Positions 14,714 to 60,464 of a stretch of 64,000 nucleotides of DNA are shown piece by piece. The notes beneath the pieces are model-generated. The model was not told the DNA's origin. It worked only from the letters and a program-made list of their open reading frames with translations, and searched no databases. Position 1 is the first letter of the stretch; every line of letters begins with the position of its first letter. Source of the stretch: Candidatus Parvarchaeota archaeon (lineage in GTDB: Archaea > Nanobdellota > Nanobdellia > WJKC01); the NCBI GenBank assembly GCA_030615175.1, contig JAUWZX010000001.1, positions 346,029-410,028 of the forward strand. The letters are read 5' to 3'. The translations under genes and the position numbers were made by a program.

Positions 14714-14830
14714 TGCCAGCGGCCATAACTTAAGTGGCAACACCTGATCCCATTCCGAACTCAGAAGTTAAGAACTTAAGTGTTATTGTGTGTACTGCGT
14801 AACACGCGGGAAATCAATAAGTTGCTGGCA
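14714..14830 (+). rRNA. rrf: 5S rRNA (stand-alone)
   Basis: TGCCAGC/GCTGGCA terminal helix, GGCCATA, CACCTGATCCCATTCCGAACTCAGAAGTTAAG, GTACTG..GGGAAA; own TATA and T-tract. Confidence 0.95.
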
Positions 14831-60178: not shown

Positions 60179-60247
60179 TAGAAGAGTTGCATCTTTTATT
60201 TATTAAAAGCGTTTTGATAGAATAAAATATATTTTATAAAAGAAAAG

Positions 60248-60394
60248 CGGACCCGGAGGGATTTGAACCCCCGACCTACAGCTAACTCCTATAACGCTCA
60301 GAGTAGGTCAGTTACTCCATAAATGGAGATTCGTCGTCTATCATCATCGCTGGATTAGGAGGCTGTCGCCCTGTCCAGACTAGGCTACGGGTCC
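60248..60394 (-). tRNA. tRNA-Arg(CCT) with 72-nt intron at 37/38 (60284..60355)
   Basis: GGACCCG/CGGGTCC acceptor; ACAGC-CT-CCT-A^A-GCTGT; BHB central helix CTCC/GGAG with bulges TA^A and TT^A. Confidence 0.95.
60284..60355 (-). ncRNA. Putative intron-encoded box C/D guide RNA
   Basis: Box C ATGATGA (60347-60341); box D CTGA (60301-60298); D-guide CTGACCTAC complementary to its own exon GTAGGTCGG. Confidence 0.6.
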
Positions 60395-60464
60395 GCCCTT
60401 AATAAATAAGTAAAGAACGCGGTTTATAAGATTTTCCAAAGGGAAAATTTTATATCCTGCTTAA

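Follow-up and report, generated by a model that had tools for sequence, protein, structure and literature searches.

Within the window, the 64,000-nt stretch of DNA that we analysed, a tRNA-Arg(CCT) gene lies on the minus strand at positions 60394-60247 (Rfam tRNA at 60248-60394, 51.2 bits), and ARAGORN, when run with introns allowed, predicts a 72-nt intron in this gene (Table 1). The genome to which it belongs is a 1.0-Mb archaeal assembly, designated here as G000; the other G labels refer to related genomes. The intron is bounded by a canonical 37/38 BHB motif, in which a 4-bp CTCC/GGAG helix is framed by two 3-nt bulges that contain the splice sites. The intron-side flanking helix of this motif is weak in G000, and the BHB motif is relaxed in the tRNA-Arg(CCT) introns of several relatives.

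Table 1. Positions of the tRNA-Arg(CCT) gene, its intron and the guide RNA elements (window coordinates)
Feature	Position	Strand	Remarks
TATA-like element, ~30 nt upstream of tRNA-Arg(CCT)	60423..60429	-	putative promoter, from sequence
tRNA-Arg(CCT) 5′ exon, positions 1-37	60356..60394	-	anticodon CCT = 60359-60357
Intron, predicted box C/D guide RNA, 72 nt, at 37/38	60284..60355	-
Box C ATGATGA, intron 9-15, after 2-bp kink-turn stem	60341..60347	-
D′ spacer, 12 nt	60329..60340	-	probable decayed relative of a 16S C1402 guide
Watson-Crick hairpin where relatives carry boxes D′ and C′	60315..60328	-
D guide	60302..60313	-	10-nt core 60312-60303 complementary to 16S 1194-1203; D+5 = G1197
Box D CTGA, intron 55-58	60298..60301	-
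GGAG, intron side of the BHB 4-bp central helix	60286..60289	-	partner: exon CTCC 60361-60358
tRNA-Arg(CCT) 3′ exon, positions 38-73	60247..60283	-	CCA not encoded
Exon 42-50, target proposed by the first-pass annotation	60271..60279	-	G45 = 60276; judged coincidental

Some further observations concern the tRNA and rRNA genes at large. In several tRNA genes on contig C5 of G000 (101,150-101,299; 276,169-276,277; 390,443-390,560; 424,514-424,611), the introns are non-canonical or multiple and ARAGORN assigned the genes wrongly, although just one EndA gene (190 aa) was found in the genome. On the same contig, tRNA-Pro(TGG) is present in two identical copies 5.6 kb apart (583,367 and 588,952), each with a 65-nt intron, and tRNA-Leu(CAG) (673,040-673,183) has a 58-nt intron with weak box-like motifs, for which the genome C/D scan returned no target. 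An apparent extra T-loop insertion, after TTCAAA, is seen in several tRNAs, including tRNA-Arg(CCT) of G001 (L002; G001:C15) and two of G000 (C5:69,606 and 532,016). The 5S rRNA gene (window 14715-14830) is located apart from the 16S and 23S genes.

A first-pass annotation of this DNA had described box C, box D and a CTCCAT/ATGGAG hairpin in the 72-nt intron, and all three are present where it had placed them. The hallmarks of a box C/D sRNA are thus in place, RUGAUGA being close to one terminus (5′) and CUGA close to the other (3′), ~50 nt apart, and the 6-bp hairpin (intron 28-41) has a 12-nt spacer on either side, which is the usual archaeal layout. The boxes are flanked by a terminal kink-turn, in which a 3-nt bulge is followed by a canonical stem, of only 2 bp in G000. 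Across 23 sequences, this stem has at least 2 bp in register in 21 (mean 3.9 bp), as against 1-3 of the 23 when the register was slid as a control (five registers), and its letters are very different among the sequences, i.e., the stem covaries. The annotation had made its case depend upon conservation of the boxes in orthologous introns; these introns do retain both boxes together with the guide core, above what would be expected by chance. Canonical D′ and C′ boxes are found in most orthologues, and in G000 and G001 a plain hairpin with fitting spacing takes their place. The C′/D′ motif is said to be essential for archaeal guides (abstract of PMC8413462), and its loss is the chief reservation about the copy in G000. 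Among Rfam sRNA and snoRNA families, none matched the intron above its gathering threshold, with snoZ30 scoring 15.2 bits (cut-off 50) and sR1 11.8 bits (cut-off 45). Taken by these features, the intron would be an archaeal box C/D guide in kind, with one defining feature (C′/D′) lost in this genus.

When the whole genome was searched for complements of the D guide, a perfect match of 10 Watson-Crick pairs (D-2 to D-11) was found in helix 34 of its own 16S rRNA, in keeping with the 9-12 nt of complementarity and the Watson-Crick pair at D+5 that mark a D guide. The 16S gene is on the same contig as the tRNA, 15 kb away (G000:C5, about 421.8 kb), and, as the window stops just short of the rRNA genes, the match had escaped the first-pass annotation. 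Alignment to E. coli 16S rRNA identifies the D+5 nucleotide as G1197, in helix 34 (the E. coli 16S record is 23 nt short, and positions were therefore raised by 23, with known landmarks as a check; a shift of −2 was applied to the 23S rRNA in the same manner). The duplex energy is −18.2 kcal/mol with 16S helix 34, versus −15.7 kcal/mol with the guide's own exon, and in 200,000 trials with shuffled guides, 10 such pairs adjacent to box D were reached in 0.9%. A crude genome-wide C/D scan of G000 gave 13 rows, of which the one aimed at G1197 is this intron, and no substitute G1197 guide was found elsewhere in G000. The 23S rRNA of G000 is divergent and was located with Rfam; as a target of either G000 guide it offers at most 7 Watson-Crick pairs. 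We consider it probable that the tRNA-Arg(CCT) gene hosts a box C/D sRNA whose predicted D guide addresses 16S G1197, such that the most likely target would be a conserved nucleotide of the small-subunit rRNA, and not the guide's own tRNA. Of the annotation's reading, the intronic C/D guide is supported, and the best target shifts from the exon to the ribosome.

The exon target put forward by the annotation was G45. The complementarity to exon 42-50 upon which it was based is real (8 Watson-Crick pairs and one G-U), and in G000 the nine pairs are contiguous and in the right register. The intronless tRNA-Arg(TCT) of G000 has an identical exon stretch, and a guide acting in the manner of the tRNA-Trp intron, which is a precedent, could thus methylate G45 of both tRNAs. 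At least 8 exon pairs are retained in 7 of 15 genomes; however, six of these seven are from one family, and in the other eight the exon pairing is lost although the guide is kept. Furthermore, in G015 and G018 a mismatch falls on the D+5 position itself, no genome has a Watson-Crick pair in place of the G-U, and the target straddles the anticodon and T stems of the folded tRNA. In G004, where tRNA-Arg(CCT) is intronless, the sRNA is still present as a free gene. The guide, in short, tracks the 16S rRNA and not the exon, and we think it very improbable that G45 is what it serves. The likeness of the exon stretch to helix 34 is judged to be a coincidence, and minor off-target methylation of the exon may occur. 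Given the host anticodon CCT, the lack of a guide to position 34 or 39, and exon complementarity that is broken in more than half of the genomes, the intron does not belong to the tRNA-Trp self-modifying type.

Evidence that the 16S pairing is maintained came from relatives. Orthologous introns were drawn from 60 relatives, 400 class genomes, a GTDB-wide scan and a metagenome scan, and 25 intron-bearing tRNA-Arg(CCT) genes from G-labelled genomes were tabulated. The D guide is present in 15 of these 25 genes, with two more in G083 and G090, and in its intronic form it spans seven families (f1, f2, f3, f5, f7, f13, and f16). At least 10 contiguous Watson-Crick pairs with the 16S site can be formed in 11 of the 13 genomes that have both an intronic guide and a covering 16S sequence (9 of 11 tabulated, plus G083 and G090; 6 of the 13 are from one family). 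In G009 and G026 there is one mismatch near the end of the guide-16S duplex, the guide and 16S of G026 being on one contig, and G001 reaches 10 bp only once an 816-nt insertion is removed from its 16S gene. The insertion lies between G1197 and G1198, and pairing in G001 would therefore be possible only after 16S intron splicing. This element (L080; G001:C15) has inverted-repeat ends and is positioned exactly between the two nucleotides; the 16S model of G001 spans 4.4 kb, which implies that further insertions are present.

The guide and the 16S rRNA change together in three families. Positions 1194-1195 of the 16S rRNA read AC in G018 and AT in G015, G023 and G004, and the guides are altered to match, at two positions in G018 and at one each in G015, G023 and the free-standing copy of G004. 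The 16S site being highly conserved, the covariation is limited to ~3 independent events. No such guide was found in G002 and G003, which belong to the same family as G000 (f1).

Twelve of the 15 matches in the GTDB-wide scan are carriers, recorded as Nanoarchaeia, Nanoarchaeota, Woesearchaeota, Parvarchaeota, Haiyanarchaeum, or archaeon, and the class is one of the DPANN; the matches L054, L055 and L059 were attributed to chance and dropped. Among the 15 metagenome matches, L140 and L148 fall outside the table, and L148, when read separately, proved to be an orthologue. A strict C′-guide-D pattern occurs in 12 of 401 class genomes and the intron pattern in 25 of 401, some by chance, which suggests that the arrangement is patchy or often unassembled, and not class-wide.

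For its second candidate guide, the annotation had reported no target in the window, and we likewise found no good one in G000; the D′ spacer now looks like a decayed guide for 16S C1402. In G023, G004 and related copies, the D′ guide is directed to 16S helix 44, with C1402 at D′+5 (9 bp in G004, 8 bp in G023), and in family f3 it matches 23S helix 69 over 10 Watson-Crick pairs, with C1920 at D′+5 (G024, G049, and G038); these assignments of D′ targets leave out G009, G027, G007/G026, G136 and G246. The D′ spacers of G000 and G001 resemble the C1402 guide but are now unpaired there (−6.0 and −1.9 kcal/mol, respectively). A separate free-standing C1402 guide is found in G000 (C5:496,874), and also in G001 and G018, where the intronic D′ guides have likewise drifted; the G001 copy fits its altered 16S. 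The D′ half presumably degenerated after the C1402 role had passed to another gene. The free-standing C/D sRNA of G000 that carries the C1402 D guide (C5:496,845-496,890) has further copies of its tail at ~502.0, 502.5, and 502.9 kb.

Other targets of the D′ spacer were considered. C1920 was ruled out for G000, since position 1920 of the 23S rRNA is G throughout family f1, G000 included, and among 30 Rfam-called tRNAs the best candidate was tRNA-Gly(CCC), with 9 pairs, 2 of them G-U, out of D′+5 register. Helix 69 of family f1 (G000-G003) is unusual in having G at 1920 and an altered loop (L051), and G004 and G023 have another variant. Within its own rRNA, the D′ spacer makes its best duplex with the strand of helix 34 opposite the D guide target (7 bp, −12.9 kcal/mol; next best −9.3 kcal/mol), and the match extends to 9 bp in G001. 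The RNA might accordingly be mainly a folding chaperone of helix 34, in which the D guide would hold the 3′ strand and the D′ spacer 1060-1066/68 of the 5′ strand, whether or not methylation takes place, as two-strand guides have been proposed to be chaperones (PMC4644070). However, a 7-bp run somewhere in the rRNA is available to 56% of shuffled spacers and an equal energy to 13% of 150, and the register is incompatible with D′+5. The intact C1402 guide of G004 also pairs equally well with that strand (−12.7 kcal/mol), and the match may be inherited. We therefore give the chaperone explanation very little chance, and return to a guide for methylation of G1197.

The proteins that such a guide would call for are all present. 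Fibrillarin, Nop5 and L7Ae, which the annotation had listed as a check on its reading, are each encoded in the genome, Nop5 as an intact 275-aa ORF adjoining the fibrillarin gene; a stop inside the Nop5 match is the natural end of the gene. In addition to the single 190-aa EndA, RtcB is also encoded. Based on these components, we propose that the pre-tRNA is transcribed and that EndA would cut the BHB at 37/38, both motif and enzyme being present. RtcB would then ligate the exons and would probably circularise the intron, by analogy with the tRNA-Trp case. L7Ae, by binding the terminal C/D kink-turn, would recruit Nop5 and fibrillarin, a step that the boxes, the covarying stem and the genes argue for. 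The D guide would pair in trans with 16S 1194-1203, as the pairing and its covariation suggest, and fibrillarin would be expected from the D+5 rule to 2′-O-methylate G1197 in helix 34. The family is one of two-guide sRNAs; in this genus, the D′ half appears to have decayed, the C′/D′ is a plain hairpin, the intron would act as a single-guide RNA, and C1402 would be served by the separate free-standing guide.

The same loss can be read in another way, namely that the family is a real rRNA guide but that this genus retains only an inactive or decaying relic of it. The hairpin in place of C′/D′, the drifted D′ guide and the short terminal stem could all be signs of decay that followed the loss of C′/D′, and the intron of G003, from the same family, is without boxes. 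Nevertheless, G000, G001 and two metagenome copies, which differ from one another in the neighbouring intron letters, have kept both boxes, the stem and the complete 10-nt guide. Moreover, the half that did decay has a replacement gene, whereas the intact G1197 guide has none that could be found in G000. On balance, we regard a relic as unlikely and favour a guide that is still in use.

The cassette is not confined to the intron. In G004, the two-guide sRNA is a free-standing gene and tRNA-Arg(CCT) is intronless, and G023, from the same family, has the intronic copy. In G040, the sRNA is free-standing with its two halves swapped, an order that would be expected from a circular intermediate, and G007 and G026, again from the same family, have the intronic form; the tRNA-Arg(CCT) of G040 was not found. 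The half-swapped sRNA (L157; G040:C2) seems to overlap a reading frame at the 3′ end of the latter, and the intron of G026 (L033) has a ~47-nt tandem duplication over the D′-C′ part of the sRNA.

The intron, in turn, is not confined to this cassette. Other guides in the tRNA-Arg(CCT) intron are directed to 23S G2454 (11 Watson-Crick pairs; G016 and G031) and to C1920 (11 pairs; G246). The introns of G016 and G031 (L042 and L043) are 131-132 nt long and combine the C/D guide to the 23S peptidyl-transferase centre (G2454) with a long hairpin. Five tRNA-Arg(CCT) introns have no recognisable boxes (G003, G044, G017, G236, and G080), and the gene is intronless in six genomes (G004, G008, G010, G013, G029, and G051). 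In our estimation, the chances are about even that the tRNA-Arg(CCT) intron in this DPANN class serves as a slot that different rRNA guide cassettes can reuse, with guides moving in and out of tRNA genes.

The best-known system of this kind is the tRNA-Trp intron of Euryarchaeota (Haloferax volcanii; Pyrococcus sR50), a C/D guide for its own tRNA that directs Cm34 and Um39, and the only functional intronic guide described in the accessible portions of PMC7994747 and PMC11408192. The present intron resembles it in being a predicted C/D RNA within a canonical tRNA intron, which would be released through the BHB and act in trans, but differs in its host, tRNA-Arg(CCT), in its predicted target, 16S rRNA, and in a cassette that also occurs outside the intron. 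The tRNA-Met intron of Nanoarchaeum equitans is a stable 66-nt RNA with box C/D elements and an internal hairpin, for which the accessible text assigns no target (PMC3491384). It has in common with ours a DPANN host, boxes C and D, and the internal hairpin. The host tRNA is a different one, and that text offers neither target nor comparative evidence, whereas here the target is assigned by covariation. The host here is, as the annotation inferred, other than tRNA-Trp, and the literature searched shows only self-targeting tRNA-Trp and untargeted tRNA-Met introns.

A guide with an identical D guide core and D+5 register on 16S helix 34 is sR32 of Pyrobaculum calidifontis, whose predicted target is 16S G1184 by the alignment numbering used in PMC4644070 (supplement 1). 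Unlike the guide described here, its second guide is directed to 16S C1205 (paper's numbering), and it is listed there as an ordinary sRNA. When compared by eye, the 26 N. equitans sRNAs listed in the same paper do not include this guide. In eukaryotes, helix 34 carries yeast Gm1428 (snR56) and human Gm1490, and loss of yeast Gm1428 has been linked to 1.2-fold more −1 frameshifting (PMC2794176). Like the present RNA, snR56 and U25 (SNORD25) are guides from the intron of a host gene with a target in helix 34, but they reside in spliceosomal mRNA introns, from which exonucleases trim them, and not in BHB tRNA introns. We take G1197 to be the counterpart of yeast Gm1428 and human Gm1490. Degenerate C′/D′ motifs are common in eukaryotic snoRNAs.

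Cm1402 and Cm1920 have been reported in N. equitans (PMC5389701), and position 1197 is absent from the supplement text of that paper, figure S3 being outside the text. Our search of the literature on Gm1197 in archaea yielded nothing relevant. A term search of the accessible text of PMC6009581, PMC8817022, PMC12558985 and bioRxiv 10.64898/2026.05.13.725050 detected no tRNA-intron guides for rRNA, and no paper on a tRNA intron guiding rRNA methylation was found in the searchable literature (mostly open-access papers, exclusive of bioRxiv and figure-only supplements).

The persistence of archaeal tRNA introns is an open question, and their established function, that of the tRNA-Trp intron, is self-modification only. 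In the present case, the ribosome appears to receive a modification guide from a tRNA intron, for a helix-34 site near the decoding centre, in parallel to the host-gene logic of eukaryotic snoRNAs. Given that the cassette is intronic in some genomes and lies elsewhere in close relatives of these, it offers a testable route to intron gain and retention, whilst the genus studied here provides a natural test case for guide function in archaea when the C′/D′ motif is missing. If the intron is truly a reusable slot for guide cassettes, it would be an archaeal counterpart of intron-hosted snoRNAs, and many archaeal tRNA introns may have a function outside their tRNA.
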